From a virus: a DNA stretch of 53,317 nt. The notes beneath the pieces were generated by a model. That model saw only the letters and a program-made list of their open reading frames with translations, was not told where the DNA came from and made no database searches. Where the stretch lies: positions 1-53,317 of IMG/VR virus record IMGVR_UViG_3300029248_000010. One strand, 5' to 3'. Positions 21,819 to 53,317 of the stretch are shown piece by piece. Every line of letters starts with the position of its first letter. The first letter of the stretch is position 1. Made by a program: the position numbers and the translations under genes.

Positions 21819-21822
21819 GTGG

Positions 21823-23190: not shown

Positions 23191-23196
23191 GCTGGT

Positions 23197-23652: not shown

Positions 23653-23717
23653 TTTGTTACACTCCTTAAAAAAGATTTTATTGTGGAAGCGGCTCACCGC
23701 TCCTGCTTACATCATGA

Positions 23718-23746
23718 AGTATATATTATCCTCCTGGAAAAAGCAA
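23718..23746 (-). promoter_or_regulatory. Sigma-A-like promoter (TTGCTT-17-TATACT) on the - strand
   Basis: Reverse complement of aagcaa 23741-23746 and agtata 23718-23723. Confidence 0.55.
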
Positions 23747-23834
23747 GCATTATTTTTCAGGATTTTGGATTATTTTTGTTGAGATTCACAAGAATCCCTT
23801 GTCCAATCTTGGTTTTTCTACAGTTTTCGAAATT

Positions 23835-24491: not shown

Positions 24492-24501
24492 GTTATCCTC
24501 C

Positions 24502-26208: not shown

Positions 26209-26210
26209 GT

Positions 26211-27296: not shown

Positions 27297-27504
27297 GGAA
27301 TGTCCTTTCTAACAGGGTCTTGATGGGAATAATTTCTCTCTGGCCAAGATGGTAAAGCTCCACAGATGTACCCTGCGTAGTTTCAATCTCTTTAATCAGG
27401 TGACCTCTATTATTGACCACGATCCCTTCCTTGCAAATAAGGTACTTACCCTCAAATCCTGGGATGGGCTGCATACTAACTTCTCTATACACCATAGGGA
27501 TCAC
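27283..27504 (-). CDS. NUMOD4-motif protein (stand-alone remnant of an HNH/GIY-type homing endonuclease N-terminus)
   Basis: 73 aa; PIPGFEGKYLICKEGIVVNNRGHLIK matches the NUMOD4 pattern; no nuclease domain follows; GTGA overlap with primase stop. Confidence 0.5.
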   Translation of the reverse strand: MIPMVYREVSMQPIPGFEGKYLICKEGIVVNNRGHLIKEIETTQGTSVELYHLGQREIIPIKTLLERTFHDNT

Positions 27505-29429
27505 CGTCCTTTAAGTCCAAGTCCTGCCCAGAGGTAGTCTCTGGTTTTACTATCACGTATTTCTCTAAATCCTTGAGCGCGTATGTTACGCATAAAGGCG
27601 TGCTTCTTGTGAGACTCTCGACCGGTGTCAATACAGAACCGGCAGTAAGACTCATACAAGGCGTTCTTCTCGACGGTGAGGTCACTGTCCATTTCACAGT
27701 GCTTAGCGAGGAATGCGTGGATGCTATCACTATCCTGACGGAGGGACTCCACGTACTTGTCGCTCAGGCTGGTACGAGGAATCTCCTTGACTGGTAACAG
27801 GGACAACAGGTACGGAATGACCTCGGACACACCCTCTTCGCTACACAGGTCATTTACGTAGTCATTATTCAGAAACAGCTCTGTATTCATAAATAGGATT
27901 CTCATGCGTTTATAGAATGCGTTGGACTTTTCCTCCAGCTGGAGCGGTAGCTGGTTGAAGGAGAAGATGAGCTTGCAAAAAGGTACAAAGAAGAATGGTT
28001 CTTTTCCTTTGCGCTCATGCATAATCTGGTCACCACCGGTGATCTTCTTCAGGTTCTCAATAGAGGACAGAGGCAAGGACGAGTTATCTGCACAGGAGTT
28101 TAGCAGCCGGTTATAGAGCTGCGCCGGATAGAACCTCATATTGAGCTCATGCATACTCAGGGAGGAAACATTCTGTCTTCCTACAAGGGTCTCAAAGAAA
28201 CGAATCAGGACTGACTTACCTGTATTTGACTGACCGCAGAGAATCATGAATGTCTTAAGACCGTAGTCAAGGGTCATACAATATGCCATGTACTTGAGGA
28301 GCATCTTGATGTCCTCGGTAGGGAGTTTAGTTTTCTTAAAGAAGTCATAGAGCCGAGTCTGCTTAAAAGGCACATACTCGCCGACTTCATGAGGGATCTG
28401 CAGAGTCTGGAGGTACTTACTGTCATGAGGCAGCAGCTTATGAGCCTCGATATCCCAAACTCCGTTCTGGAAATTGATAAGGTTTTTGTCCTGGTTTAGC
28501 TGACTGGGAAGCCGCTGCAATCGCACGTCGTCACAGATAAGGCGGTAGGCCTCCATGATTCTTGTCTGCGTGATGAGGTGATCTACGACAATCATGTCCT
28601 TAATGGCATTACGCACATAGCTGCTCGCTTCGGCGTAAATGCCCTCTCTGTAGAGGTAGCACTCACCCCCCAGAACAAAGATGTCACCACGATTGACAAA
28701 GTAGTCACAGATAGCACGGTAGTTAATACTGTTGGGGACGCCTTTGCTGTTGTAGATAAGGTAGGGATTATCAAATTCATGAGCTGCCTCATAGCGTTTG
28801 GTATTCTCAATAATCTTCTCAAGCTCAGAGTCAACCATAGGCTCACTGAAGATAATGTCATTGATAGCATGAGCCATCTCATCAATCTGCTGGTCAGAAG
28901 CCCCCCTATTCTTGTAGGCCATGAGGTGAGCAAAGAGGGTAGCATTGCGCCCGTCACCGTCCTTAAGACCAAGAAGAGTCTCCTTACGATTGACCATAGG
29001 AGTCCACTCGGGGGGCAGCTCTGCTATCTCTCTGCACTTGTTAAAAGAACGATTCTCAGACCCGAACGGAAGGATTACATAGCCCTTGTTGGCACAACGG
29101 AAGTCACACTTAAGACCACAGGGGAGAATCATGCCGACCTTCTGAGGATAGTCCTTGTCACATTTGAAATACAAGTGCAGACCCTTCGGTGTTTTAGCCA
29201 TGAGGGTCTTCAGACCAAGGCGTTTTATCATCTTGAGAGCTTGAGCCTTACCCTCATCGATATCGACGATTATGTACCCTGTCCTGACCCACCAGCCGAT
29301 CTGTCCACCAGAGAAGATGTGAGCATCAGCAGCAGCCTGATTCACGATGGCAGTATCAAGGCGCTTCTTGCCCATGCAGCGGACGTAACTATCTTGACCT
29401 ACAAGGGCATCGAACTCACTCAGTTTCAT
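27501..29429 (-). CDS. Primase-helicase (prim-pol-like N-terminus plus D5/P4-type SF3 helicase)
   Basis: 642 aa; ILCGQSNTGKSVLIRF (Walker A), FCKLIFSFNQLP, N-terminal WVRTGYIIVDIDEG...YVILPFG primase-polymerase-like. Confidence 0.88.
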   Translation of the reverse strand: MKLSEFDALVGQDSYVRCMGKKRLDTAIVNQAAADAHIFSGGQIGWWVRTGYIIVDIDEGKAQALKMIKRLGLKTLMAKTPKGLHLYFKCDKDYPQKVGMILPCGLKCDFRCANKGYVILPFGSENRSFNKCREIAELPPEWTPMVNRKETLLGLKDGDGRNATLFAHLMAYKNRGASDQQIDEMAHAINDIIFSEPMVDSELEKIIENTKRYEAAHEFDNPYLIYNSKGVPNSINYRAICDYFVNRGDIFVLGGECYLYREGIYAEASSYVRNAIKDMIVVDHLITQTRIMEAYRLICDDVRLQRLPSQLNQDKNLINFQNGVWDIEAHKLLPHDSKYLQTLQIPHEVGEYVPFKQTRLYDFFKKTKLPTEDIKMLLKYMAYCMTLDYGLKTFMILCGQSNTGKSVLIRFFETLVGRQNVSSLSMHELNMRFYPAQLYNRLLNSCADNSSLPLSSIENLKKITGGDQIMHERKGKEPFFFVPFCKLIFSFNQLPLQLEEKSNAFYKRMRILFMNTELFLNNDYVNDLCSEEGVSEVIPYLLSLLPVKEIPRTSLSDKYVESLRQDSDSIHAFLAKHCEMDSDLTVEKNALYESYCRFCIDTGRESHKKHAFMRNIRAQGFREIRDSKTRDYLWAGLGLKGR

Positions 29430-29432
29430 GTA

Positions 29433-30011
29433 TCAGTTCTCCTTCTTAACGAATCTACAGCCGGGATCTTTCACACACTCAGCGCAAGCACCGCCCTCTT
29501 TGAGCTGCTTGTAGTCACCGTTGTGAACACAGCCTACACACGGGGTAGCTTTCGCGTAACGATCAAAGTTATGGCAGTCTCCACAAGGGAAGATATGGTC
29601 AGGGATGTTTGCAAACACACAAGACTGACACTTGTAGTTTTCAATGGAAGTCTGCCCGGGAACTTCTCTGTCAATGGTGGTCTGCTCCATGCTGGAGGAT
29701 GTGTTCATCCAGTGCTCAAGGCGGCTCACCTTGCCATTGATGCGCTGCTGGAGATCATAGGGCTTGATGTCGAAAATGTTGATCACATGATCAAGGACAA
29801 TGAGGACGTCAGCGACCTCGTCCAGTGCCTTGGTGTACAAATCATTATGAGCTTTCTCACGGTCAGCGTAACGGGGGTATTTAGCACATACAGCTGCAAG
29901 CTCAGTCAATTCTTCGCAAGAGACCAGAATCTGGTTGGTTTCACCATAGGTGTCACGGGCTTTCTTGAGAATCTGAAGATGTGTGCTGGTAAGATATTTT
30001 GTGTGACTCAT
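29433..30011 (-). CDS. MazG-like all-alpha NTP pyrophosphohydrolase fused to a Cys-rich C-terminal domain
   Basis: 192 aa; ILVSCEELTELAAVCAKY...ALDEVADVLIVLDHV (EExxE...E.aD pattern); C-terminus with CQSC, CGDC, CVGC, CAEC pairs. Confidence 0.6.
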   Translation of the reverse strand: MSHTKYLTSTHLQILKKARDTYGETNQILVSCEELTELAAVCAKYPRYADREKAHNDLYTKALDEVADVLIVLDHVINIFDIKPYDLQQRINGKVSRLEHWMNTSSSMEQTTIDREVPGQTSIENYKCQSCVFANIPDHIFPCGDCHNFDRYAKATPCVGCVHNGDYKQLKEGGACAECVKDPGCRFVKKEN

Positions 30012-30021
30012 ATAGGCCTCC

Positions 30022-30504
30022 TTAACGGTCAGAGTTGTCGTCCATCCAGTCAGTGATGTGACGTACTTTTACATAGTTGATGCGGAAAATATGTTCGGCC
30101 ATGATGGAGATCTCGGCTGTACCACCATAAATGACCTCAGCTACTCCAGCAGCACAAAGAGCTCGGGCACAAGCCTCACAGGGGTAACGGGTCACATAGA
30201 CCGTAGAGCCAAACACCCTCACGCCGTTACGAGCTGCCATAGCTAAAGCATCGATCTCACTATGCAGAGCCATGCAATCAGCCGGTCCACGGTGAGCTTT
30301 ACTGTCATTCCCATGGATCTGCTTACGCCAACATCCCATGAGCTTACAGTTCTGCGGAAGAGTACGATTTGCGCCCATACTGGCAGTAGTTTCAGTACCG
30401 TTGACTCCCTTGGTAATGACACACCCTACTGAGACTTTTTGGCAGCCTGAGTGAGCGATAGCGTACTTGTATGCCATATCAAGCCATTGTTTATCAGTAT
30501 TCAT
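30022..30504 (-). CDS. dCMP (deoxycytidylate) deaminase
   Basis: 160 aa; HSEIDAL (H[AS]E) and YPCEACARAL (PCxxC) zinc-site motifs. Confidence 0.88.
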   Translation of the reverse strand: MNTDKQWLDMAYKYAIAHSGCQKVSVGCVITKGVNGTETTASMGANRTLPQNCKLMGCWRKQIHGNDSKAHRGPADCMALHSEIDALAMAARNGVRVFGSTVYVTRYPCEACARALCAAGVAEVIYGGTAEISIMAEHIFRINYVKVRHITDWMDDNSDR

Positions 30505-30506
30505 AG

Positions 30507-31319
30507 TTAGTCCTCCATGATGAATTTGATTGCTTTCCAGTTAAACTTGATAGATTCCACGCCTGATCGAGTCTTGGCGATCTTGATAAGGGTAGGATCC
30601 TTACAGGCCAGCACGAACTGAGCTACTCTCTTGTGCTGCTTCTGCTGGATAGAGTCAAGCTCTGATGCATTGCAACCACCTGTCCCCGCGCCCATGGCTG
30701 GACAGTCATACTGGATTGCATTGGTTTTAACACATTCTAATCCCTTCTGGTAGCATTCCAACTGAAGGAAGAGATCCTCATTGCCTACAAGGTCGTTACT
30801 CTGGTAATTCAAACCAGCCTTGTGGATGGCCTTGACATTGATCCCCACAGCCTGTTGGAGCTGGGATCTGCGGAGGATAGGGATCTCATCCTCGGTAAGA
30901 GACCAGCTAAAGGGACGGTAACTTGCACCCAGCATAGCTTCGTCAGTCCAGATTGCCTCCCAGCACAGCAGCACCTTGCGCCAGTCCTCCACATGACCGA
31001 TGACATTGCCGGAGGCCTTGACCTTCCCGGACTTAGGGTCAACCATAGACAGGTCAAGTCGGGTAACATCATCGTCGAGCATGATGATCTTGTCGAAGCC
31101 CTTGTGTACTGCATAGTTGAACATGACTCTACGAGTCTCACCTATATTAGACACATTGGAAATGAGGACAAGGGTGGTGTTTGGTCTGGCCTTGATCCAG
31201 GAGTAGGCTTCCTTTTCCTCCTTGCGGACAAAGACGTACAGAGGGAACTTCTGGTTCATACTACGTCGAAGGAATTTGGCATCAGGTCGTCTGTAGGACG
31301 GTACAAATACAGGAATCAT
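30507..31319 (-). CDS. GT-A-fold glycosyltransferase-like protein, candidate DNA-base glycosyltransferase
   Basis: 270 aa; MIPVFVPSYRRP start and IIMLDDDV (DxD), pattern recalled for TET/JBP-associated glycosyltransferase-type phage proteins; embedded in nucleotide-metabolism genes. Confidence 0.5.
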   Translation of the reverse strand: MIPVFVPSYRRPDAKFLRRSMNQKFPLYVFVRKEEKEAYSWIKARPNTTLVLISNVSNIGETRRVMFNYAVHKGFDKIIMLDDDVTRLDLSMVDPKSGKVKASGNVIGHVEDWRKVLLCWEAIWTDEAMLGASYRPFSWSLTEDEIPILRRSQLQQAVGINVKAIHKAGLNYQSNDLVGNEDLFLQLECYQKGLECVKTNAIQYDCPAMGAGTGGCNASELDSIQQKQHKRVAQFVLACKDPTLIKIAKTRSGVESIKFNWKAIKFIMED

Positions 31320-32326
31320 AAATCCTCCTCACTGGGAACGTACTTCTTGCGGGGACGCCCTGTACCGTTCATCAGTTTTAGGTACTTGGACAGCTCACAC
31401 ATACAGTTCTCCAGGCTCATGATGTTCATGTAACGGTCTTCCTCAGGGAGATCCCAGAAGAGGGTCTTTGGGTCAAAGTCCTTACCAAGGTGCTTAGCAA
31501 AAAGGTCTTCAAGGTTGTCTCTCAGCCAGAATAGACACTCCTCATAGTTGAGATGATCCCTATTGGTAAACAGGTAGTTAATACCACGCTTGCAGCCGAT
31601 ACCAGCTACCGTGAACTCATTCTCCGAATAAGGAAAATCCTCTATGTAGGTAAAGTCCACAAAGATCTGGTAGGCCAAGAATCGACCAATGCCATTATAG
31701 GCGACGATCTGCTCATAAGCCTCACTCTGATCATCACAGAAGGACAACCTACCTGCAAAGTTTTGCTCAGTAAGGTGCTTCATAAACCAGAGAGGACGCA
31801 TTTCTGCAATGTCCCCGCCCAGATCCTCTGGAACATACTGACTGAAAACGCGCTTCATACCAGAGGTCAGAAATGCACCTGTAAAGAAGACTCGTTTAGG
31901 ATCCTCGTCCAAAGCATCCTGCCAGACGCCGTCGTAATTCTCAGGGTCAAAGCTGCCATCAGAAAACTTTATAGGTAAGTCAAGTAGTTCTGCAGTCTGG
32001 TGCTTGTTATACAGTCGGAATAGGACACAGTTATAGATCTTGTCCGTATAGGACAGCTTTTTATTGGAGGTAATGTGCTCGATGAGCCATTTGGTTTCTC
32101 TGTCGTGCTCACGCCGGACGTTAGTGAACCTGTACTCTGCGAGGATGGTATCAGACGTCCACGGTGCAGACAGCTTGAGCACATCCTTGCGAAGATGGAT
32201 CTGGTAACGACGCTGGATGTAATTATACAGGATTCTTAGGTTGGTGTTGTTGACCGTAGGATTAGCCCCATGGATCTTGAACTGGTTTACACCGCAGTAG
32301 GGGGTATCGTTCAACTTGATCTTCAT
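31316..32326 (-). CDS. HhH-containing enzyme, candidate DNA base-hypermodification protein (aGPT-pyrophosphorylase-like?)
   Basis: 336 aa; YRFTNVRREHDRET, FFTGAFLTSG, YNGIGRFLAYQIFVDF (helix-hairpin-helix GIG motif), NCMCELSKY; family assignment is from memory and context only. Confidence 0.35.
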   Translation of the reverse strand: MKIKLNDTPYCGVNQFKIHGANPTVNNTNLRILYNYIQRRYQIHLRKDVLKLSAPWTSDTILAEYRFTNVRREHDRETKWLIEHITSNKKLSYTDKIYNCVLFRLYNKHQTAELLDLPIKFSDGSFDPENYDGVWQDALDEDPKRVFFTGAFLTSGMKRVFSQYVPEDLGGDIAEMRPLWFMKHLTEQNFAGRLSFCDDQSEAYEQIVAYNGIGRFLAYQIFVDFTYIEDFPYSENEFTVAGIGCKRGINYLFTNRDHLNYEECLFWLRDNLEDLFAKHLGKDFDPKTLFWDLPEEDRYMNIMSLENCMCELSKYLKLMNGTGRPRKKYVPSEEDL

Positions 32327-33018
32327 AAAGCCTCCTTAGTCTTAAAGAACTTGTGATTGCCGATGGTCATTACATGAATGAGGTCAGTCTCATGCCAGTG
32401 AGAGTACTTGCCTCCAACCGTAGAGTAAAAATATTCAATAGGTTCGGAGGTGATTCTTTCTCCCAGGATGAAGACGGCAATACAGGCATCCTCTACATCA
32501 GATTTAGCCTTATCATTATTGAGAGGGGAGGCATACCTATTTGGGAGCTTAACAACCTCTTCCGGGGTCATGTTACGGAGCTGCGCCGTGTCCAGGATGC
32601 ACTGAGCCACAGCCATCTGACCGTCATAGGGCTCGCCCCAGCACTCCTGAGCTACCACTCCCAGCACATAGTCCCAGTCCCAACCGAGATCGGGGATGGT
32701 AGCAGGCTGGTCATACACAGAGTTATTGAATACGAGGGACTCTTCGATGATGGTCTCATCCTCGAGGACGTCAGTTTGCTCGGCGGGGTACATAAGTTCC
32801 TGTTGGAGCTCCCGTGTCTCCTGAAGGACTTCAGAGGACGTCTGAAGGACTTCCTCAACTTCCTGCTGAAGGGTCTGGAACTGCGCACTGATCGTTAGGT
32901 AGCAGCCAACAATGAAGCCCAGTAGACCAGCAGTAATGATGAGGATCAGGTTGGTAATGCTGCGCATACGCTTGTTAATGTAGCGGACACTGTCCGGATG
33001 ATAATAGTAAGACATCAT
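32323..33018 (-). CDS. Membrane-anchored SleB/CwlJ-type cell wall hydrolase
   Basis: 231 aa; TM ITNLILIITAGLLGFIVGCYLTI, coiled coil, then LGVVAQECWGEPYDGQMAVAQCILDTA (Hydrolase_2 signature). Confidence 0.65.
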   Translation of the reverse strand: MMSYYYHPDSVRYINKRMRSITNLILIITAGLLGFIVGCYLTISAQFQTLQQEVEEVLQTSSEVLQETRELQQELMYPAEQTDVLEDETIIEESLVFNNSVYDQPATIPDLGWDWDYVLGVVAQECWGEPYDGQMAVAQCILDTAQLRNMTPEEVVKLPNRYASPLNNDKAKSDVEDACIAVFILGERITSEPIEYFYSTVGGKYSHWHETDLIHVMTIGNHKFFKTKEAL

Positions 33019-40351: not shown

Positions 40352-41101
40352 ATGCCTAAGAAAAAGCCTCCCAGACCTTGGGAGCAGCCTTATGAGGAAG
40401 TTACAATCAGAGTACCAAGACACCCTGTCATTCGGTCAAGATGGATTGATGATAGACATCTTGTAGTTGACTTCAGAGGTATCCGGCTGCCAAGTAAAGT
40501 TGGCATGACTCACAATCCCGGTAGAAGAATCTACTTCTACTCTGCAGAAGATTTACAGGCCAGAATTGACGGGTACTTTGACTCTTGTAATGGTCCTATC
40601 TTTGACAAGAATGGTACTTTACAGCGGGACAAGCATGGCGAGATTCTTACGGGTCAAGTCGAGCCCTATACCATGTCAGGGTTCGCGTATCACATGGGGA
40701 TCTCTACAGGTTCAGTCTTGGCATACAGGGACGGTGACATAGACCCCATCTTGGATGAGTTAAGGTGCGACACGGATGATATGCTAACTTTCTCACGCGC
40801 ATTGACAAGAGCCAAACAAAGGATTGAGGCATACGCTGAGAAGCGCTTGTACGATCGCGACGGTGCGAATGGTGCAAGACACGTTCTGGACTGCGCTTGC
40901 GGGTCTAAGTGGGTATCCAGTAAGGAGCTTGCCGAGATCCAGAAGATCCATGCTGAGATTGCCATGAAGCGTGAGGAGTTTGAGCTCAAGAAGAAACTCC
41001 TTGAGGATTCTGGTGGTGACGATGAACTCACAATCAACATCGTTCGTGGTAGACGTAAGGACAGTACAGGTAAAGACGAGGAGGGTGGTGATGACAAATG
41101 A
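40352..41101 (+). CDS. terS: Terminase small subunit
   Basis: 249 aa; RBS GAAGGAGGG; EPYTMSGFAYHMGISTGSVLAYRDG HTH-like terS motif; directly upstream of terL. Confidence 0.7.
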   Translation: MPKKKPPRPWEQPYEEVTIRVPRHPVIRSRWIDDRHLVVDFRGIRLPSKVGMTHNPGRRIYFYSAEDLQARIDGYFDSCNGPIFDKNGTLQRDKHGEILTGQVEPYTMSGFAYHMGISTGSVLAYRDGDIDPILDELRCDTDDMLTFSRALTRAKQRIEAYAEKRLYDRDGANGARHVLDCACGSKWVSSKELAEIQKIHAEIAMKREEFELKKKLLEDSGGDDELTINIVRGRRKDSTGKDEEGGDDK

Positions 41102-41274
41102 GGGACGATGCCCTCCGCTTCTGTGAGGTGCAGCTTCGGCGCTGTAAGATCAACCTTGATGCAGCTGAAGCTCGTGGTGACACGCGAGCGGTGAGTAACT
41201 TGCAGCGCAAAATCAGCATATACACCTATTTAATAAATATATTGAACGGGGATGACATCAATGGTTGTGGATAA
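41098..41274 (+). CDS. Small ORF (58 aa) between terS and terL
   Basis: ATGA overlap with terS stop; [58 protein letters not shown]; overlaps terL start. Confidence 0.35.
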
Positions 41275-42577
41275 GGAAGTAAATCCTCGCTTTGAGTCAT
41301 TTATCTGGGACTGGGATTATAGGACTTACCTTCTGGTCGGCGGCTACGGATCCAGTAAATCTTACCACATTGCACTCAAAATCATTCTAAAGTGTCTCCA
41401 AGAGAAGAGAAAGGTGCTTGTGGTTAGAGAGGTCTTTGATACAATCCGTGACTCTTGTTATGACCTACTGGTCGAGATCTTGGAAGAGTTTGACCTTGTT
41501 GGAACAAGCAAGAATAAAGTACGCTGCTCCGTCTCCCCTATGAAGATCAGGTTCCCTAACGGGTCTGTGATTATCTTCAAGGGTATGGACAAGCCCACAA
41601 AGCTCAAGTCCATCAACGGCGTTACAATCGTCTGGTTGGAAGAGTGCTCTGAGATTAAGTATGCAGGCTACAAGGAGCTGCTCGGTCGTCTGCGTCATCC
41701 TACGTTATCTCTGCACTTTATTCTGTCCACAAATCCGGTTGGTACAGAGAACTGGGTGTATCAGCACTTCTTTAAACGACTGGACGATGAGGGCAATGAG
41801 CACATCACTCTTGATGACAAAGTCCTGTACAAGCGGCGTACGATCGTTAAGAATGGAGTGTATTATCATCACAGTGTGGCTGACGACAACCTGTTCTTAC
41901 CTCAGTCTTACATAGAGACTCTTGACCAGATGCGAGAGTATGACCCTGACTTGTACAGGATTGCCCGACTTGGCAGATTTGGTCTTAACGGTAAAAGGGT
42001 TCTGCCTCAGTTTGAGGTGGCTGCATCTCATAAGGCTGTGATGGCTGCGGTTGCAGTGATCCCAGACAAATTCAAGTTCTGTGGTATGGACTTCGGTTTT
42101 GAAGAGAGCTACAATGCTGTGGTCAAAGTTGCCGTAGACGACGTGCAAAAAATCCTTTACATTTACTACGAGTACTACCGCAACCACATGACTGATGACA
42201 AGACGGAGAAGGAGCTTAAGAAGGATGGACTTGACAAGGTTCAAATTATCGCCGACTGCGAAGATCCTAAAGCCATTGCATTCTATCGACAGTCGGGGTT
42301 TAGAATGCGTGGCTGTCACAAGTATGCAGGGTCACGACTCGCCAACACGAGGAAAGTTAAGCGTTTCCACAAGATTGTCTGCTCTCCTAACTGTCCCAAC
42401 ACGATAAGGGAGCTCAGCACACTGATCTATGCCAAGGACAAGCAGGACAACCTCATCTATGACGAGTTCAATATCGACCCGCATACGTTTTCGGCGATCT
42501 GGTACGCTTTGGATACCTATGAGGTCGCAGACGTTAAGTACATCCCGCGCAACAGTAGGAAGGGGGAAATTGCATGA
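41252..42577 (+). CDS. terL: Terminase large subunit
   Basis: 441 aa; [15 protein letters not shown] (Walker A-like), [10 protein letters not shown] (Walker B), nuclease half with IIADCEDPK; alternative start ATG 41261. Confidence 0.9.
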
Positions 42578-43071: not shown

Positions 43072-44721
43072 ATGGACAAAATGGAGGTGACTTACATGGC
43101 TACTGAACCCGTTTCTATTGATGTTACAAGACTCTTAAACATTCCCACAGGCCTCATCAAGAATGAGCTTGAGGGTCTGTATGGCTCAGCTGTTCTTAGA
43201 GATATGTACGAGATCATCAATCTTTACAGTATCTATGAGACCGGTGCGGAGTTTACCACTGACAGCAATGGAGACTATACTCCAGCTGATCTGAGGTACA
43301 AAACGTCCAGAGCGCTGTTGGACAAAGAGGCACGATTCCTGTTCTCCAAATCCCCGGACATCTGGGTTGATGTCAATCTTGGTGATTCCAAGGAAGACAG
43401 ACAGGCTGCACAGGAGGCCTCTACGATTTACCAGAACCTCGTGGATGAAGTCCTTAAGAAGAACAAGTTCAAGAGTGCACTGCTTCAGGCTGCAAAGGAC
43501 TGCTTCATCGGTAAACGTGTGGCTATGATGTACAATGTTAACGTAGACACAGGTATTCAAGTGAGTTTCCTGCCGAGCCTGGAGTTTGTGTACGATGTTG
43601 ATCCAAGTGACTACAACAAGCTCACGAAGATTGTTGCCTTTTACGGTATCAATGATGAGAAGTCCAAGCAAGATCAGCGCATTTATAAGAAGAAGTACTG
43701 GCTGGAGAACGACGTGTGCTGGTATTCTGAAGAGGTGTATGATGGCCTCGGCATTCTGGTTGAGACCATTTCTGAGCCGACCAAGACACTGTTTGAGTTC
43801 ATTCCAGCTTGCGTCATCGTAAATGATGGCCTAAGTGGTGACTTGATCGGCGTGTCTGAGATCGAGCAGCTTGCAAGTTATGAGAGCTGGTACAGTCGTC
43901 TTGCCGGTGCAGACATGGATGCTGAGCGCAAGGGCATGAATCCTATCCGTTACACGATCGATGCTTCCCCTGAGAGTACAAAGGACCTCAGTATCGCGGC
44001 GGGCGCATTCTGGGACATTGCATCTGACCAGAACAGGGCTTCTGACACGTATGCGCAGGTCGGTGTGCTGGATACTCAGATGAGTTACAGCTCTGCTCTT
44101 GCAAGTACTCTTGACCGTATCAAGAACACCATGTATGAGCAGTGCGCCGTTCCTAACGTCAGCCCCGAGGCCATGAAGGGTGTTGTCTCTTCGGGTAAGA
44201 CTCTTAAGGCTATCTACTGGGATCTGATTGTCCGCTGCGAGGAGAAGATGTTGGTTTGGCGTCCGGCGCTGGAGTTCATGGTACAGTGCATCATTGAGGG
44301 TGCTCGTCTATACCCGGAGGCAGCCAAGTTCTATATTGAGGATACCCTGCCTGACGATCAGTACTCTGTCCGTGTGGATAATCAGTATCCGCTTCCTGAA
44401 GATGAGGCCGAAGAGAAGCAGACCGACTTGTCTGAAGTTACAGCACAGACTATGTCCAAAAAAGCCTACATGAAGAAATGGCGCAACCTTACCGATGACG
44501 AGGCTGACGAAGAGCTGCGTCAGATTGCCTTGGAGCGTCAGATCCTTGAGGACAGCTACACTGGTGACACTGGTGTTGACTTTGGTGAAGAGGACACTAC
44601 TGGTGCTGAGGGTGAAGAGGGTGACTTCGGTGATGACGACATTGAGGACACTGAGCTCCCGAGTGATGTGTCTGTGGAAAAGGCTCTCAAAGAACTGGAG
44701 GAACTGTTAAATGGCGTATGA
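43072..44721 (+). CDS. Portal protein (SPP1 gp6-like)
   Basis: 549 aa; position after terL, acidic C-terminus; likely true start ATG 43096 (GGAGGTGA 5 nt upstream). Confidence 0.85.
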   Translation: MDKMEVTYMATEPVSIDVTRLLNIPTGLIKNELEGLYGSAVLRDMYEIINLYSIYETGAEFTTDSNGDYTPADLRYKTSRALLDKEARFLFSKSPDIWVDVNLGDSKEDRQAAQEASTIYQNLVDEVLKKNKFKSALLQAAKDCFIGKRVAMMYNVNVDTGIQVSFLPSLEFVYDVDPSDYNKLTKIVAFYGINDEKSKQDQRIYKKKYWLENDVCWYSEEVYDGLGILVETISEPTKTLFEFIPACVIVNDGLSGDLIGVSEIEQLASYESWYSRLAGADMDAERKGMNPIRYTIDASPESTKDLSIAAGAFWDIASDQNRASDTYAQVGVLDTQMSYSSALASTLDRIKNTMYEQCAVPNVSPEAMKGVVSSGKTLKAIYWDLIVRCEEKMLVWRPALEFMVQCIIEGARLYPEAAKFYIEDTLPDDQYSVRVDNQYPLPEDEAEEKQTDLSEVTAQTMSKKAYMKKWRNLTDDEADEELRQIALERQILEDSYTGDTGVDFGEEDTTGAEGEEGDFGDDDIEDTELPSDVSVEKALKELEELLNGV

Positions 44722-45196
44722 TCCTGTATATCAGCACGAGTACTATATGCGTCATCGCAAGCTCAAAGGTCGCAAGCGCAAAGCACAGACTCAACGGAGC
44801 AACATTACACAGAGGGTATCTTCTAAGGGTCTGACAAAGGCTTCTCGCTCCAAGTTGAAGGACTACTACCAGCAGCTCAAGGAAAATCTTGCTGACGCTA
44901 AGGCCAACATTGACGAGGCCAAGACTCAGACCATTGACCACATGAATGAGCAGATTCAGAACCAGATCGATTCTATTAAGGCCAAGATCACCAAGGGCAT
45001 GTCAAAGGAACAGAAACAAGCCCTTCGTGATCAGGTTAAGGAGCTCAGACAGACCAAAAAGGATACCAGAGCCAAGATTGTACAGACTGCAAGGGATATG
45101 TACTCCAATGCCCGTAGTGAGACCAACAAGGCATACAACGCCATGGTTGACTATCTCAAGGGCGAGGATGCTAAGACCAAGAAGTCTAAGAAATGA
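44711..45196 (+). CDS. Hypothetical basic coiled-coil protein
   Basis: 161 aa; RBS GGAGGA; K/Q/E-rich heptad-like sequence. Confidence 0.55.
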   Translation: MAYDPVYQHEYYMRHRKLKGRKRKAQTQRSNITQRVSSKGLTKASRSKLKDYYQQLKENLADAKANIDEAKTQTIDHMNEQIQNQIDSIKAKITKGMSKEQKQALRDQVKELRQTKKDTRAKIVQTARDMYSNARSETNKAYNAMVDYLKGEDAKTKKSKK

Positions 45197-45206
45197 GGTG
45201 TGACAC

Positions 45207-46793
45207 ATGGCAAAGCTCAACTTGAATACAGCACAACAGGCAAGGGTCAACCTGACTCAAAAGCAGCAAAAGCACATTGCCCAGATCTATAAAAATGCTG
45301 CCCTGTCTGTTGGTAGAAAGGCGAGGTCTTTGCCTAACACGCCGTCCTCTCCTCTGTACAAGTCCGAGCTCAACAAGCTCAAAAAGGAACTTAAAACACA
45401 ACTTACTGCTGCCGAGCAAGCTCTCAAAGGTGAGATTTATGACAACATGGAGTCGGCTGCTCAGGCAGTGGTAAAGGACAACTTACAGTTCCTTGAGAAC
45501 GTCGGTCTTACTATTGAGGGTGCTTATTACAAAGTCCCGACTGAGATTGTCAAAATGGTGGCAACTGGTCAGCTCTATGAGGGTAAGTGGTCACTGAGCC
45601 GTGCCCTCTGGAAAGACCACATGAAGACTCAGTACGACATCAACACGGTAGTTGCTACGGGTATAGCAGCTAACAAGAGCGCCTATGATATTGCTAAAGA
45701 CTTGGAGAAGTACCTCAAGCCGGATGCGAGAAAGGACTGGGACTGGAACAAAGTCTATCCCGGTACAAGGCGTAAAGTGGACTACTCTGCACAGAGGTTG
45801 GCTCGTACTATGGTATCCCATGCCTATCAACAGGCATTTGTTAGGACGACACAGAATAACCCTTTTGTGACGGAATACATCTGGTTGTCTTCTGGCGGTG
45901 AGCGGATGTGCGAGATTTGCGCTGATCGTAATGGTCAACACTATCCTAAGGACAAGCTCCCACTTGACCATCCTAATGGAATGTGTACCTTTGAGGCCGT
46001 ACTCAGTGGGAATATGGTTGACATCTCCAATAGGATTGCTGACTGGGCTTTGGGTAACACCGACTCAGACATAGACAAGTGGCTGGAGAGCATGGGGGTT
46101 GATGCAAAGAACCTTCCTGCTGTACAGCGGGCGTCCCAGATGGCTAATACAGTCAACAAGATTCCTTCTGCCGAAGATTGGATTAACATTATCAAACAGG
46201 TTGAACTCCAGGATATGCTCGACATTGAGGCAGCTAACTTTGAGAAGTTTACTGGCACAGAAAGAGATGCGCTCAGGATATATACAGGCAGCTCCTACAG
46301 ACGCTGGAACGGATACCTGAGAGGAACTCGGTCTGATCTTAAGTTTGGAGAAGAATACCTAATAGAGTCTGCAAAGCAAGCACTATCAAAGTCTGCCTTT
46401 GAACGTCCTGCCGTCCTTAGACGTGGTACAGACTTTGGTGATCTGGCTGGCCTTATCGGTGCAAAGGATTTTGACCAGACCAAGTGGGAACTTGAAAAGA
46501 TGTCTGCAAATGAGCTGAACAAGCTGTATGCAAACACTATCGGTGAGTACAAAGGCTTTACGAGCACTTCGTCTATGTGGGACAAAGGCTTTTCTGGTCC
46601 GGTTGAAGTTGTGCTCTATGCTCCAGAAGGTACACAGGCCTCGTCCATTATGGGTATTTCTCAGTTCGGCACAGCCGAGGGTGAAACTCTCCTTAATGCT
46701 GGCACAAGAGTACGAATCCTAAGGATTGAGGAATCCGATGGACACATGAGCTCTGATATTCGTATGTACTTAGAGATACTTCCACAAAAATAA
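45207..46793 (+). CDS. Head morphogenesis protein (SPP1 gp7 / Mu F-like) fused to a C3/VIP2-type ADP-ribosyltransferase domain
   Basis: 528 aa; MuF part RLARTMVSHAYQQAF...CEICADRNGQHYPKDKLPLDHPNGMCTF. ART part YTGSSYRRWNGYLRG, VLRRGTDF (Arg), GFTSTSS (STS), QFGTAEGETLLNAG (ExE). Confidence 0.85.
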   Translation: MAKLNLNTAQQARVNLTQKQQKHIAQIYKNAALSVGRKARSLPNTPSSPLYKSELNKLKKELKTQLTAAEQALKGEIYDNMESAAQAVVKDNLQFLENVGLTIEGAYYKVPTEIVKMVATGQLYEGKWSLSRALWKDHMKTQYDINTVVATGIAANKSAYDIAKDLEKYLKPDARKDWDWNKVYPGTRRKVDYSAQRLARTMVSHAYQQAFVRTTQNNPFVTEYIWLSSGGERMCEICADRNGQHYPKDKLPLDHPNGMCTFEAVLSGNMVDISNRIADWALGNTDSDIDKWLESMGVDAKNLPAVQRASQMANTVNKIPSAEDWINIIKQVELQDMLDIEAANFEKFTGTERDALRIYTGSSYRRWNGYLRGTRSDLKFGEEYLIESAKQALSKSAFERPAVLRRGTDFGDLAGLIGAKDFDQTKWELEKMSANELNKLYANTIGEYKGFTSTSSMWDKGFSGPVEVVLYAPEGTQASSIMGISQFGTAEGETLLNAGTRVRILRIEESDGHMSSDIRMYLEILPQK

Positions 46794-46796
46794 TGC

Positions 46797-46825
46797 TTGC
46801 TTTTTGCAAGAAGATGATATATAAT
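46797..46825 (+). promoter_or_regulatory. Sigma-A-like promoter (TTGCTT-17-TATAAT)
   Basis: TTGCTT 46797-46802, TATAAT 46820-46825, directly after the ART gene stop. Confidence 0.6.
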
Positions 46826-46854
46826 GATTTTATCAATTATAAGGAGGTTACAAC

Positions 46855-47079
46855 ATGAGTGCTAAGAAAAGCTCTGACAAGAGCATGAAGCAGCGTATCG
46901 CATCTGAGGCTCGGGCTTGCGTGCGTATCACCAACAGGGATCTCGTTTGTAAGGACTGTGGGTACAGGTTCCCTGACAACAAGGTCTTTGGCAATACTGC
47001 TCGCTGTAAGAAATTTACCCTGAAGCCGACTAAAGTCTTGGGAGGAGGATCCTGTGATGAATACCTTAAAGTACGATAA
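46855..47079 (+). CDS. Small zinc-ribbon protein
   Basis: 74 aa; RBS TAAGGAGGT; CKDCGYRF...CKKF...CDEY. Confidence 0.55.
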   Translation: MSAKKSSDKSMKQRIASEARACVRITNRDLVCKDCGYRFPDNKVFGNTARCKKFTLKPTKVLGGGSCDEYLKVR

Positions 47080-47908
47080 AGTCCTTGGAGCTCTGTACGG
47101 GTTCGCTATCGGTGACGCCATGGGTGCTACCACTGAGTTCATGACTGCTTCTGCCATCCATGCTCAGTATGGTCAGGTTGATCAGATTATCGGTGGCGGT
47201 TGGCTGCACCTTAAAGCTGGAGAGGTCACTGATGATACTCAGATGACCTTGTGTGTAGCTGACGCTATTATGGATAACTGGCCTAACGAGGATGCTGTTA
47301 TGCAAGGTATCTGCATCAACTTTGAGAACTGGCTCACTACCAAGCCGAAGGACGTGGGTAATACCTGTTTCTGGTCTATTATCCGTAACGAGGGTAAACC
47401 TTGGAAGGACTGGTCTTGGAACAACGAGTTCAGTCAGAAGTCCTGTAAGGTTCAAGACCTCGGTAACGGTGGCCTAATGAGATGTCTCGTACCGTGTCTG
47501 ATGGGTCAGGAGGAGCTGGCTGTCATGCAGTCTCGGCTTACCCACGCCAATGACATCTGTGATTATGCAGTCCGGCAATACTACCACGCTCTATGGACGT
47601 GCCTTACCAAACTCGCCCCGAGCAGTACTCTACCACCGCTGACCAAGACTACTCCCACCGGTCACGTGGAAAATACTCTCCGGAATGCCATCTGGTGGAA
47701 CCGAGGCTGGCTCACATTCCGGGACACCATCATCGCGGCGGTGAATGACGGCGGCGACGCGGACACTATCGCGGCGCTGGCGGGCGGTTTAGCTGGAGCT
47801 CGGTGTGGGTATACCCAGATCCCGTCGGAGTGGCTGAGCGTCCTTCAGAGGACGAAGAGAGACCATTTGAAACGGGTGGCCGACTTCATCGTCGAAAACG
47901 CCGGGTAA
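47057..47908 (+). CDS. ADP-ribosylglycohydrolase (ARH/DraG family)
   Basis: 283 aa from ATG 47057 (GGAGGAGGA upstream); LGALYGFAIGDAMGATTEF, VTDDTQMTL, GGDADTIAALAGGLAGARCGYTQIPSEW. Confidence 0.88.
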   Translation: MNTLKYDKVLGALYGFAIGDAMGATTEFMTASAIHAQYGQVDQIIGGGWLHLKAGEVTDDTQMTLCVADAIMDNWPNEDAVMQGICINFENWLTTKPKDVGNTCFWSIIRNEGKPWKDWSWNNEFSQKSCKVQDLGNGGLMRCLVPCLMGQEELAVMQSRLTHANDICDYAVRQYYHALWTCLTKLAPSSTLPPLTKTTPTGHVENTLRNAIWWNRGWLTFRDTIIAAVNDGGDADTIAALAGGLAGARCGYTQIPSEWLSVLQRTKRDHLKRVADFIVENAG

Positions 47909-47936
47909 AAATGAAAAATATTTTTCTCAATCTTGT

Positions 47937-47966
47937 AAAGCCCCTGAAAAAGGGGCTTTACTTTTT
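47937..47966 (+). terminator. Rho-independent terminator whose 3-prime arm and T tract overlap the next -35 box
   Basis: aaagcccct-gaaaa-aggggcttt then actttttc. Confidence 0.75.
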
Positions 47967-47985
47967 CGAAAACATATAGTATAAT
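47957..47985 (+). promoter_or_regulatory. Sigma-A-like promoter (TTTACT-17-TATAAT), twin of 40244-40272
   Basis: GGGCTTTACTTTTTCGAAaACaTATAGTATAATAT versus GGGCTTTACTTTTTCGAAtACtAATAGTATAATAT. Confidence 0.7.
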
Positions 47986-48044: not shown

Positions 48045-48443
48045 ATGACGAATATCACACACTGTGACCTCTGTCGGGGGGAGATTCAGGTCACCCCTCA
48101 GGTTCTCGAGGAGAAGCAGCTCACCCTCCAGCTAAAGAACGGTGCTGAGTGTAAGTGCGACGTGACGTTCGTAAACTGCCCACACTGCGGTAAGTCCTAC
48201 GCGGTGATCGTGGACGACTGGGAGACCAAGGAGCTACTGAGTTCGGTAAAGTGGCTGTACCTTAGAAAGCTCAACTATCTTAACAGACACAAGCCTGTGC
48301 CCAAAAAGCTCCAGGACCAGCTCCTCAAACTCAATAGGAAATTAGACTTCAAGCGTGAACAACACGCTCCGGAGTTTAATGAAGCCGTTTACCAGCTTGA
48401 CGGCAATACATATCAACTGGATTATCGCTACCATGTGCGATGA
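48045..48443 (+). CDS. Hypothetical zinc-ribbon protein
   Basis: 132 aa; RBS AAAGGAGG; CDLCRG...CPHCG. Confidence 0.55.
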   Translation: MTNITHCDLCRGEIQVTPQVLEEKQLTLQLKNGAECKCDVTFVNCPHCGKSYAVIVDDWETKELLSSVKWLYLRKLNYLNRHKPVPKKLQDQLLKLNRKLDFKREQHAPEFNEAVYQLDGNTYQLDYRYHVR

Positions 48444-48468: not shown

Positions 48469-49113
48469 ATGGAAAAGTATCTGACTACACTCAAAGGCAT
48501 CGGTCTTCAGCTCTTTGCTGATCCCCCTGCAGACCCTCCGGCCGATCCACCCGCCGATCCTCCGGCTGACCCGCCTCAGGATCCCCCTGCTGGTAAGACT
48601 TACACGCAGGAGCAGATCAATGCAATGATGGCGAATGAGAAGCGAACGGCTCGTCAGGCTCTGCTCAAGGATTTGGGTATTGAGCTCAAGGATGAGAAAG
48701 CCTACAAGCAGACGGTCGCCGACCTCAAGAAAACCCTTGACGCCGGTAAGACTCAGGCTCAGCTTGATGCTGAAGCCAAGAAAGCTGCTGAGACTGCTCG
48801 TGATGAGGCCAACGCCAAAGCATCCAGACTCGAAATGCAGGTTGCAGCCCTCAAGGCGGGTGTTAATCCTGATTCGGTTGAAGATGTCATTACCTTGGCT
48901 CTTGGCAAGGTCAATGATAACACCACCATCGAACAGGTGCTTACCAGTCTCAAGGAAAAGTACCCCGCGTTCTTTGGTGAAGACAAGGGTGGCTCAGGTA
49001 CTGGAGGCTCCACGAATCCCAAGCGTAAACAGTCCGCTGGAGCGGAAGGTCTTGGCCAGAGACTTGCCAAGGCACACAAAACCAGTGTGAAGAGTAGCTA
49101 CTTCACAAAATAA
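48469..49113 (+). CDS. Capsid scaffolding protein (DUF4355-like)
   Basis: 214 aa from ATG 48469 (RBS TAAGGAGGA); GLQLFAD start motif, (ADPP)5-QDPP, long coiled coil, position before decoration/capsid genes. Confidence 0.7.
   Translation: MEKYLTTLKGIGLQLFADPPADPPADPPADPPADPPQDPPAGKTYTQEQINAMMANEKRTARQALLKDLGIELKDEKAYKQTVADLKKTLDAGKTQAQLDAEAKKAAETARDEANAKASRLEMQVAALKAGVNPDSVEDVITLALGKVNDNTTIEQVLTSLKEKYPAFFGEDKGGSGTGGSTNPKRKQSAGAEGLGQRLAKAHKTSVKSSYFTK
48517..48588 (+). repeat. Six tandem 12-nt units encoding ADPP x5 plus QDPP
   Basis: gctgatccccct gcagaccctccg gccgatccaccc gccgatcctccg gctgacccgcct caggatccccct; units differ mainly at synonymous positions. Confidence 0.9.
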
Positions 49114-49136: not shown

Positions 49137-49541
49137 ATGTTCAACAAGACTGGTATCAAGAAGACCACCGGTGCTGCACCTGTCCAGATTCTGTTTGACG
49201 TTCAGAATCAGGTCTCGGTCAGCATCGTGGTCGACGACGGTTATTCCGTCACCCGTGACGGTCGCAAGATCGTTCCCGCTGGCACTCCCCTGTCTGGCAG
49301 TCTGACGGCGCGTAACACTGCGTTTGTCAAGGCTGTAGACAACACGGCTGAGTCTGGTGCTTCCAATGGCAAGCCTGCTACGGGTGTGCTGCTGCATGAT
49401 GTTGATGTCACTGATGGTGACACCAATGGTACGCTGCTCATTTGGGGCTTCGTTGATCTGAACAAGATCGACGCTACCACGGCAGCGCTGCTTACGGCTA
49501 CTCGTCAGGGCGAAATGCCGTCCATCAAGTTCCTCAAGTAA
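49137..49541 (+). CDS. Putative head decoration protein
   Basis: 134 aa; RBS AAGGAGGA; small beta-rich protein immediately upstream of an E-like capsid gene (lambda D/E arrangement). Confidence 0.45.
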   Translation: MFNKTGIKKTTGAAPVQILFDVQNQVSVSIVVDDGYSVTRDGRKIVPAGTPLSGSLTARNTAFVKAVDNTAESGASNGKPATGVLLHDVDVTDGDTNGTLLIWGFVDLNKIDATTAALLTATRQGEMPSIKFLK

Positions 49542-49562: not shown

Positions 49563-50603
49563 ATGACTATTTTTGACCTCGTCAAGGCTCCTGAGCTCAC
49601 TGCTTACTGGGAAGAGCACACTCAGGACATGCCTCCCTACCTCGGTGAGGAGCTGTTCCCCGCCGACAAGAAACTCGGCCTGAAGCTCGACTGGATCAAG
49701 GGTGCGAACGGTCTGCCTGTTGTCCTCAAGCCCTCTGCGTTTGATGTGGGTGCTGTGCCCCGTCCGCGTATCGGCTTTGACAAGCTGGAGACCGAAATGC
49801 CCTTCTTCAAGGAGAGCACTTACATCGACGAAGAGCTCCGTCAGCAGCTCAACATGGTTCTCGAGACCGGCAATCAGGCATACATTGACTCTGTCATGAA
49901 CCGTGTCTTTGCCGACGAGATGCATCTGCTGGAGGGCGCTCGTGCCCGTCGTGAGCAGATGCGCATGATGGCTCTCACTACCGGCGCTATCGCTATCACT
50001 GCCAATGGTCAAGCGTACAGCTATGACTATGGCATCCCCTCTGCACACAAGTCTGAGGTTACGACGTCTTGGTCTGACGCTGCTTCTGATCCGATCGAGG
50101 ATATGCGTATCGCTATGGACAAGATCGAGGATGACACCGGCGTTCGCCCCACTCGCGGCGTCTGCACTCGTAAGACTTGGGGTTATCTCCGTGTCAACCA
50201 GAAGATCATCAAGTCCATCTTTGTCCTGTCCAACGGTCAGGTCACGGCGCTGTCTGACGCCCGCCTGAGCCAGTACCTCATGGACGAGCTCGGCCTGGAG
50301 CTCATTGTCTATGGTAAGCGCTACAAGAACGACGCCGGTACGGCGACTCAGTTCGTACCCGACGATGTTGTTACCCTGTTCCCCGAGGGTACTCTGGGTA
50401 ACACGTGGTTCGGTACTACCCCTGAGGAGTCCGACCTGATGGGTGGCAAGGTCGCCAACGTGTCCATCACCGATCTGGGTGTGGCTGTTACCACCATCCA
50501 GAAAGCTGACCCTGTCAACGTCGAGACCAAGGTCACGATGATCTGCCTGCCCTCCTTTGAGTCTGCTGACAGCGTCTATATCCTTGACGTAAAGAAGGGT
50601 TAA
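49563..50603 (+). CDS. Major capsid protein (lambda gpE-like family)
   Basis: 346 aa; RBS AAAGGAGA; N-terminal ...APELTAYWEE...LGEELFPADKKLGLKLDWIKG pattern recalled for the E-like family; position after scaffold. Confidence 0.8.
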   Translation: MTIFDLVKAPELTAYWEEHTQDMPPYLGEELFPADKKLGLKLDWIKGANGLPVVLKPSAFDVGAVPRPRIGFDKLETEMPFFKESTYIDEELRQQLNMVLETGNQAYIDSVMNRVFADEMHLLEGARARREQMRMMALTTGAIAITANGQAYSYDYGIPSAHKSEVTTSWSDAASDPIEDMRIAMDKIEDDTGVRPTRGVCTRKTWGYLRVNQKIIKSIFVLSNGQVTALSDARLSQYLMDELGLELIVYGKRYKNDAGTATQFVPDDVVTLFPEGTLGNTWFGTTPEESDLMGGKVANVSITDLGVAVTTIQKADPVNVETKVTMICLPSFESADSVYILDVKKG

Positions 50604-52983: not shown

Positions 52984-53317
52984 ATGAACGAAATTACAAG
53001 CATTGAGCAGCTCGCTCAGTACTCTATGGGTCAGGTGGTTCAATTCCCTGATTTTGCCGAGGGTCAGCCTTTTGTGGCACGCATTAAGCGTCCCTCTATG
53101 CTTGTCCTTGCTAAGACTGGACAAATCCCGAATGCCCTGCTTACCAAGGCAAACAGTCTATTTGTGGGTAAGGGCATCAATGATAAGGATACAGGTGCTA
53201 TGAAGGATCTCTTCAAGATCCTCGATGTCATCTGCGAGGCTTGCTTCGTTGAGCCTACTTATCAGCAGATCAAGGAGTCCGGCATTGAACTGACCGATGA
53301 GCAGCTCATGTTCATCT
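52984..53317 (+). CDS. Tail assembly chaperone, N-terminal part (continues across the junction to 204-206)
   Basis: RBS AAGGAGGA; MNEITSIEQLAQYSMGQVVQFPDFAEGQPFVARIKRPSMLVLAKTGQIPNALL...; full gene is 146 aa when joined with 1-206. Confidence 0.8.
   Translation, partial: MNEITSIEQLAQYSMGQVVQFPDFAEGQPFVARIKRPSMLVLAKTGQIPNALLTKANSLFVGKGINDKDTGAMKDLFKILDVICEACFVEPTYQQIKESGIELTDEQLMFI
53219..53317. repeat. Terminal overlap, exact copy of 1-99
   Basis: See feature 1-99. Confidence 0.95.

Follow-up and report, generated by a model that had tools for sequence, protein, structure and literature searches.

Why would a phage head protein end in an enzyme that attaches ADP-ribose, and why would the genes behind it encode the means of undoing that reaction? 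This question is raised by a locus in a viral DNA stretch of 53,317 nucleotides (nt) from IMG/VR (record IMGVR_UViG_3300029248_000010; the whole stretch is hereafter called the window). There, a MuF-type head protein of 528 amino acids (aa) with a C-terminal ADP-ribosyltransferase (ART) domain (45207-46793, + strand) is followed by a conserved small open reading frame (ORF) of 74 aa (46855-47079, +), whose product we call the Cys4 protein, and by the gene for a 283-aa ADP-ribosylhydrolase (ARH; 47057-47908, +). An earlier inspection of the letters alone (hereafter the sequence-only reading) had described these genes as a writer and its eraser. In this work, we compared the locus with related head modules and conclude, with a probability of roughly 70%, that it represents a polymorphic effector module of the MuF family with two layers of immunity, built on the design known from Bxa-Bsi-BAH and Apk2-Tis1-Aph1. 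Among the evidence for this interpretation is that the small protein occurs with the ART and varies with its type across divergent phages.

Components of the locus

The 528-aa protein matches the head-morphogenesis family phrog_1657 at 1e-54, and its MuF/SPP1-gp7-type minor head protein core, the presumed capsid carrier, occupies aa 1-300 (45207-46106, +). Two other models fell just short of their cut-offs (Phage_Mu_F PF04233, 27.7 vs. 29.6 bits; TIGR01641, 32.9 vs. 39.65 bits). The extension C-terminal to the MuF core comprises 231 aa and carries an R-S-ExE ART (linker and domain, 46107-46793, +), with ADPrib_exo_Tox PF03496 matching aa 346-513 (46242-46745) at 6e-18 and 65.3 bits (cut-off 23.4). 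These matches bear out the proposal of the sequence-only reading that a MuF-type head protein ends in an R-S-E ART. Among the motifs it had named, LRRG (aa 404-407; 46416-46427), STS (aa 453-455; 46563-46571), and EGE (aa 491-493; 46677-46685) are present as catalytic motifs, whereas YRRWNGYLRG (aa 364-373) is a conserved N-terminal helix motif and the catalytic arginine lies in LRRG. The catalytic arginine, serine, and second glutamate are kept across 19 divergent homologues. When a profile of these 19 homologues was compared with solved structures, the best match was Lmo0066 (2e-31), followed in order by C3larvin, Certhrax, CdtA, iota Ia, C3, and VIP2, with Tre1 at 7e-9. The enzyme is most likely arginine-specific, as suggested by its C3/VIP2/iota R-S-ExE type, the ExE motif, and the presence of an arginine-type eraser.

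A relative without the ART shows where the extension begins. Its MuF protein has 304 aa, is 69% identical to aa 1-297 of the window protein, and ends at window aa 297. Because this MuF protein stops there, we take the cassette to run from the ART extension through the small ORF and the ARH to a terminator, and the ART appears to arrive and leave as a unit. On one phage backbone, 10 ART types were found in addition to ART-less versions; together with the profile match to the type VI effector Tre1, this agrees with the C-terminal domain of MuF polymorphic toxins (Jamet et al., 2017), which varies and recurs in other toxin delivery systems. A different carrier was found in a metagenome-assembled genome of Ruminococcus, where the ART-small-ARH trio lies behind a 1389-aa Phage_min_cap2-ART protein; the cassette is portable between carriers.

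The ARH is matched by ADP_ribosyl_GH PF03747 at 8.8e-45 (154 bits; cut-off 26.2), and its structure matches include DraG (2woc, 3e-40) and Tri1 (6dre, 7e-24). Residues E27, T58-D59-D60-T61, D99 (equivalent to DraG D97), and D234-x-D236-T237 are invariant in 20 sequences. With all metal-binding and catalytic residues kept, the earlier assignment of the gene after the small ORF to the ARH/DraG family stands. The scores reach neither the DraG equivalog cut-off (TIGR02662, 183 vs. 337 bits) nor that of Tri1 (NF041672, 104 vs. 490 bits), so the ARH is a relative rather than an orthologue of both, and since the alignment begins at Tri1 chain residue 69, it does not have the Tri1-type N-terminal extension. 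Translation probably starts at ATG 47057 rather than GTG 47054, because the former gives a 23-nt overlap with the small ORF, as in homologues; a ribosome-binding site (GGGAGGAGGA) lies upstream. ARH homologues are plentiful in metagenomes, often on contigs of about 50 kb.

The 74-aa protein, whose gene is preceded by the ribosome-binding site AAGGAGG (46841-46847), has no family in Pfam, PHROGs, NCBIfam, or PADLOC; a PADLOC search with all four proteins gave no match. A single-sequence search found 2 relatives only, so a profile search was needed, and an exhaustive profile search defined a family of 386 unannotated clusters. C32, C35, C51, K57, P58, and C67 are invariant among the homologues, and the cysteines form a probable Cys4 metal site. 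The sequence-only reading had called this a zinc-ribbon ORF. The ORF is present at 46855-47079, but the two CxxC/CPxC knuckles of a zinc ribbon are absent: with one CxxC and two isolated invariant cysteines, it is not a classical two-knuckle zinc ribbon. A profile of the family gave chance-level zinc-module matches only among PDB sequences.

Distribution of the components among related head modules

For the census, searches anchored on the ARH and on the capsid protein yielded 105 non-redundant IMG/VR head modules that are complete from MuF to scaffold. All three components (ART, small protein, and ARH) occur together in 44 modules, and all three are absent from 43 modules, in which MuF has about 323 aa. 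Seven modules have the ART and the small protein with no adjacent ARH, and two have only an ARH, which looks decayed. In the remaining nine, the ART and ARH are present and the automatic run detected no small protein. Manual inspection revealed that most loci scored in this way hold a divergent ORF of the small family; with it included, the small protein is present in about 58 of 60 ART-bearing modules vs. none of 45 ART-less modules. The ART-bearing loci that truly have no small protein number two (L126, and L164, which is outside the census since no MuF was detected). The sequence-only reading had treated the 74-aa ORF as a passive accessory; instead, it is the cassette component tied most tightly to the ART.

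The seven modules without an adjacent ARH were considered as cases without any eraser. This was rejected, as two of the seven encode an ARH elsewhere in the genome, about 30 kb from the head module and on the opposite strand, while the MuF-ART and small protein genes stay in place (L100 with L183/L258 on IMG/VR contig 3300045988_072473, and L101 with L259 on contig 3300045988_045134). In the sister loci L099 and L104, the displaced ARH adjoins early-type genes encoding DUF932 and DUF2786/DUF7168 proteins.

Another small gene of the region, a 132-aa ORF (48045-48443, +; phrog_1315, function unknown), encodes an N-terminal CxxC...CPxC zinc ribbon with a helical tail. Almost all relatives have this ORF in the interval from MuF to scaffold, frequently as a tandem pair of paralogues. 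It was rejected as a Bsi-like immunity protein, since it occurs in 39 of 45 ART-less modules as well as in 51 of 60 ART-bearing ones. Since it is present with or without the ART, we count it among the ordinary genes of the head module, outside the cassette. The alignment of this family is too divergent for scanning.

Co-diversification of the small protein and the ART

Pairwise divergence of the components was compared over 43 modules. The small protein correlates strongly with the ART (Spearman 0.79; partial 0.77 given the capsid protein; Mantel test, 0/2000 permutations), and much less with the ARH (0.29) or the capsid protein (0.32). The ARH correlates with the capsid protein at 0.66. When types were cut at a p-distance of 0.6, we obtained 10 types of ART and 7 of the small protein (adjusted Rand index, 0.92), whereas the ARH and the capsid protein each formed one cluster. 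Judged by these distances, the ARH follows the phage backbone and the small protein follows the ART. The small-protein gene overlaps the ARH gene yet co-varies with the ART, which argues for a cognate toxin-immunity signature, with the ARH as a generic second layer.

Expression signals and gene order of the cassette

A sigma-70-type promoter (TTGCTT-17-TATAAT; 46797-46825, +) begins 4 nt past the ART stop codon. The sequence-only reading had credited the cassette with this promoter of its own. The -35 element is poor (it fits at 3 of 6 bases only), and a generic promoter scan missed it, yet in about 45 of the 55 divergent loci scored, a promoter that fits at 10 or more of 12 bases, with a 17-nt spacer, is located at the ART stop codon; among these are loci with other carrier proteins and loci without an adjacent ARH. 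Chance matches would be expected at roughly one per 1-2 kb, and the observed conservation is far above that. It is this conservation of position that supports the promoter. In most loci, the end of the small ORF and the start of the ARH gene share 4-23 nt, an overlap that argues for translational coupling of the two genes, and the pair is predicted to form a separate transcription unit.

The cassette had also been said to close with a strong terminator, and an intrinsic terminator was indeed found (47935-47966, +; -21 kcal/mol, z = -5.6; 11-bp stem at 47935-47961 plus a T-run). The 3' arm of the stem shares bases with the -35 element of the next promoter (47957-47985). The terminator and its junction with this promoter are kept in the nearest relatives only; many relatives have no terminator, and in others the ARH abuts the next gene. 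In the ART-less relative, MuF runs directly into that promoter and the 132-aa ORF, in agreement with the view that the cassette interrupts the usual order of head genes. A recent insertion was considered and rejected, because the cassette is conserved down to 36% ARH identity and its G+C content is unremarkable (0.476 for the small ORF and 0.534 for the ARH, vs. 0.46-0.56 for the neighboring genes). Of the features of a moron (an insert of promoter, gene, and terminator with deviating base composition), the cassette thus shows the promoter and the terminator, the latter absent in many relatives, along with a G+C content in the range of its neighbors.

In close relatives, the cassette promoter takes an extended form, CTTTACTTTTYCAA/CGAA...TATAAT. 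An extended motif, CTTTACTTTTYCGAA-N10-TATAAT, also recurs before operons of the window, namely, at 9372-9400 (+), at 40244-40272 (+; before terS), at 47957-47985 (+; where it would drive the 132-aa ORF, scaffold, and capsid genes), and at 33655-33627 (-; early region). The idea that this promoter class marks separate timing was rejected, as the same class precedes terS and the capsid operon, with one copy in the early region.

Proposed mechanism

In the mechanism that we propose, the MuF core (aa 1-297) would act as a minor head protein, taken up into the procapsid at the portal by analogy with SPP1 gp7, and the swappable C-terminal ART would ride in the capsid and be freed into the next host with the DNA. 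Two genes, putatively coupled in translation, would be read from their own promoter right after the ART stop codon. The Cys4 protein would serve as a type-specific partner that most likely binds and blocks the ART, as its presence and absence, type matching, and fusion suggest. The generic DraG/Tri1-like ARH, whose catalytic residues are intact, would strip arginine-linked ADP-ribose from proteins hit by leaking ART. Together, these two proteins would protect the virion-producing cell until the ART is packaged, and they may also end ART action later in infection. A packaged and ejected ART, with the ARH as producer-cell immunity or eraser, had been envisaged in the sequence-only reading; this view fits all the comparative evidence and corresponds to the published MuF-toxin model.

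Several points weigh against this interpretation. For the 528-aa protein and its close relatives, packaging, ejection, enzymatic activity, and binding are all predicted properties. The AF2 model of the small protein is weak (predicted local distance difference test score of 73, with the other four models near 50), and a Foldseek search of the PDB with this model gave no fold match, such that binding is without structural support. Because related sequences and adjacent genes are compared, linkage contributes to the distance correlations. Self-protection is also a weaker selective argument for an apparently virulent phage, which forms no lysogen and whose host cell lyses anyway. Finally, members of the small family occur without any ART, at ZacABC, GmrSD, and peptide deformylase sites and in fusions to unrelated domains, so the family may work independently of the ART.

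The alternative that survives best concerns timing. The ejected ART may modify the host early, with the small protein and ARH later switching the modification off; we consider this possible, at well below even odds. It is consistent with the conserved promoter of the cassette, with a genome that looks virulent (no integrase found, complete circular assembly), and with the ARH that lies about 30 kb away, on the opposite strand and among early-type genes, in two related phages. However, the cassette promoter of close relatives shares its class with the promoters of terS (40244) and of the scaffold and capsid genes (47957), with one copy early (33655), so the promoter sequence gives no timing signal. 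A timed eraser is also compatible with self-protection and does not exclude it.

Stand-alone and fused copies of the Cys4 protein

Lone Cys4 genes were found in several loci (L248-L253 and L256, with the L248 gene at 10001-10216; L254, 6001-6216; L257, 5308-5523). Their products have 71 aa and are about 70% identical to one phage type, and each gene has a strong promoter of its own, which is conserved, while neither an ART nor an ARH is encoded in the vicinity. One setting is 4 nt upstream of ZacABC, on elements with relaxase and serine recombinase genes; in other settings, the neighbors of the lone copy are GmrSD genes or a gene for a peptide deformylase. In-frame fusions of the small protein and the ARH also exist (P0110, 351 aa, L271 1597-2652; P0081, 353 aa, L273 294-1355), of which P0110 stands alone, adjoining GIY-YIG and DUF3987 genes. 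In P0246, P0258, P0282, and P0356, the Cys4 domain is fused to unrelated domains.

The lone copies could be captured antidotes, since orphan immunity genes are a known and usual trait of polymorphic toxin systems (PMC3482391; PMC11699363). We tentatively raise, as a rather doubtful proposal, that the Cys4 protein specifically inhibits ARTs ejected by phages, and that bacteria and mobile elements have acquired its gene on its own for defence. The basis is the identity of about 70%, the promoters of the lone genes, their defence-island sites, and the lone small-ARH fusions on other elements. If true, the host would turn the antidote of the phage against a first-strike effector of that phage, a form of defence for which there is as yet no demonstrated case.

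The same copies bear on an unlikely reading in which the 74-aa protein is no ART inhibitor at all and is instead a small zinc-binding regulator or a general mobile-element accessory that travels along. Genes with their own promoter at ZacABC, GmrSD, and peptide deformylase sites, with no ART or ARH gene close by, would suit such a role, and so would the domain in its four unrelated fusions. However, a general accessory would not be expected to be missing from all 45 ART-less head modules of the same phage lineage, to be kept in the 7 modules without an adjacent ARH, or to track the types of the ART and not the ARH gene that it overlaps, and orphan immunity genes are known for polymorphic toxin systems, as noted above. 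An inhibitor of the ART is the role that we favor for this protein.

Other roles for the ARH and the ART

It is highly improbable that the ARH is a counter-defence enzyme that removes ADP-ribose added by an ART of the host's defences and has nothing to do with the phage ART. Lone ARH genes do occur in some related phages and in many others, including jumbo phages and actinophages. However, among the complete head modules, the ARH is found with the ART in 53 and without it in 2, both of which look decayed; the ARH is missing from the head module yet present elsewhere in two ART-bearing genomes; and the ARH is fused to the ART-linked small protein. Least probable of all is that the ART is an animal-host or inter-bacterial factor released at lysis and not an effector ejected into the next bacterium: the gut-metagenome origin of the relatives, the membership of the ART in the C3/VIP2/iota family of eukaryote-targeting toxins, and the precedent of Bxa, which acts on epithelial cells (PMC11699363), point that way, but the protein lacks domains for secretion or entry into cells, its ART is joined to a protein of the capsid interior in an apparently virulent phage, and nothing in the analysis bears on a eukaryotic target.

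Genomic context and phage lifestyle

The window carries an exact 99-bp terminal repeat (1-99 = 53219-53317) and is therefore a complete, circularly assembled phage genome of ~53.2 kb. We found no integrase or recombinase in any window ORF tested, and the genome encodes the phage's own DNA polymerase, primase, and helicase as well as DNA-hypermodification genes. The lack of an integrase and the replication genes make the phage appear virulent. A megablast search of GenBank phages with the cassette region and a tblastn search of the same phages with the 74-aa and 132-aa proteins gave no match, so the lineage is known from metagenomes only. Its relatives are of gut metagenome origin.

The MuF-ART gene sits in a packaging and head module with terminase and portal genes, all on the + strand. 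A 249-aa ORF in the small-terminase position (40352-41101), assigned by gene order, is followed by the large terminase TerL (41252-42577) and an SPP1-type portal (43072-44721), both assigned by family searches. The portal gene is one ORF further upstream of MuF-ART, with a 161-aa coiled-coil ORF (44711-45196) in between. Downstream of the cassette and the 132-aa ORF, family searches identified the scaffold (about 48469-49113), a decoration protein (49137-49541), and the major capsid protein (49563-50603). The portal-MuF interval is a variable slot, which in L004-L006 holds a holin and a CHAP/amidase endolysin (2205-3832). The N-terminal part of the scaffold ORF contains the repeated peptide (ADPP)n (48520-48566).

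On the - strand, the window has a thymidine hypermodification gene set (18221-33638). It includes a 5-hmdU DNA kinase (31316-32326; PF18723 at 8.6e-64), a thymidylate-synthase-like protein (18221-18949), a radical SAM protein (19328-20302), a dCMP deaminase (30022-30504), a glycosyltransferase (30507-31319), and an HD hydrolase (33015-33638). A 124-aa ORF (36465-36839, -) consists of the C-terminal DNA-binding domain of Spo0A alone (PF08769 at 2.6e-20). Since Spo0A is the master regulator of sporulation, finding a part of it in a phage suggests a host among the spore-forming Clostridia. A tail-fibre-like ORF of 553 aa (5734-7395) contains a stretch with 63% G+C vs. a genome average of about 49%.

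Significance and comparison with known systems

MuF-fused toxins are common in gut phages. The lineage described here forms a natural test set, with hundreds of genomes of about 50 kb whose main difference is whether they have an ART cassette and of which type. What a phage gains from an ejected enzyme could be learned by comparing otherwise matched phages with and without the ART. The Cys4 family is a candidate new family of ART inhibitors, and its lone genes in defence islands hint that hosts may neutralize phage effectors directly. The design has so far been described for prophages only; its presence in an apparently virulent phage with predicted hypermodified DNA would give it a wider host range.

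The sequence-only reading had held that this is not a described phage system, and here the literature contradicts it. An enzymatic immunity protein, Imm-ARG, strictly associated with R-S-E ART toxins, was proposed by Zhang et al. (2012; PMC3482391), who also described delivery through the phage head by way of MuF. In several species from the gut, ARH genes adjoin Bxa (Ahmad et al., 2023; PMC10083569), and the MuF-ART protein Bxa was shown experimentally to be neutralized by the adjacent hydrolase BAH and the small binder Bsi (Alexei et al., 2024; PMC11699363). Small ORFs downstream of MuF toxin genes have been reported (PMC5576092); the 74-aa ORF is likewise of less than 150 aa and directly downstream of a MuF toxin gene. 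ART-MuF fusions have also been predicted to be packaged and injected (PMC9503650).

The closest parallel is Bxa-BAH-Bsi of a Bacteroides stercoris prophage. Both systems have an N-terminal MuF and a C-terminal arginine-type ART (putatively so in the window) in a head-morphogenesis region; an adjacent ARH, which in BAH reverses the modification and which here accompanies MuF-ART in 44 or more modules; and a small non-enzymatic protein, which blocks the ART in the case of Bsi and is a candidate blocker in the case of the 74-aa protein. In both, related MuF cores carry other toxins. However, the window ART is not orthologous to Bxa (the PHROG family of Bxa matches the MuF part only, at 4e-5), and the partner belongs to the Cys4 family, which has no known relatives and may be unrelated to Bsi and RS09440. 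Moreover, in the window the small gene lies ahead of the ARH gene and overlaps it, both are served by a promoter of their own, and the host is probably a Clostridia-type bacterium, infected by an apparently virulent phage, not a prophage.

A toxin, a binder, and a hydrolase have likewise been shown for Apk2 (PMC10083569). Apk2-Tis1-Aph1 resembles the window in combining a MuF-fused toxin with a structural immunity protein and an enzymatic hydrolase, and in that the binder is always present and the hydrolase variably adjacent, as in the 7 modules here with the ART and small protein and no adjacent ARH. It differs in that the toxin is a (p)ppApp synthetase and the eraser an HD hydrolase.

Tre1 is an R-S-E ART that is neutralized by Tri1 through both active-site blocking and ARH hydrolysis. 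The window ART and ARH match the two chains of this type VI pair (6dre, 6drh), and the small-ARH fusions mimic the N-terminal blocking extension and ARH domain of Tri1. Unlike Tre1-Tri1, which is delivered by type VI secretion and in which a single protein has the N-terminal extension, the window would divide the two functions between two coupled genes. DraT-DraG provides reversible arginine ADP-ribosylation, and the window ARH is closest in sequence to DraG; the context here is not nitrogen fixation, and the writer is from a different ART family. Lmo0066-Lmo0067 of Listeria (8za7) provides the best solved match to the ART, and the co-crystallized ARH matches the window ARH at 1.4e-12. Unlike the window protein, Lmo0066 is a stand-alone ART of 180 aa with no MuF fusion; a search of the literature library used here found no paper on its function.

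The virulent phage T4 packages the ART Alt in its capsid and injects it along with its DNA, and Alt modifies host proteins as soon as infection begins. The putative capsid ART of the window, in an apparently virulent phage, resembles Alt in this respect. To our knowledge, T4 Alt has no dedicated eraser or inhibitor, and it uses a different packaging signal.

The overall design of the locus is already known. The new elements are the phage lineage and its family of Cys4 partners, a conserved promoter inside the locus with translationally coupled genes behind it, and the fusions and orphan copies. Also new is the apparently virulent context with DNA-hypermodification genes, vs. the temperate phages and prophages in which MuF toxins were exclusively found by Jamet et al. 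(2017), which is a reported distribution and not a structural criterion.

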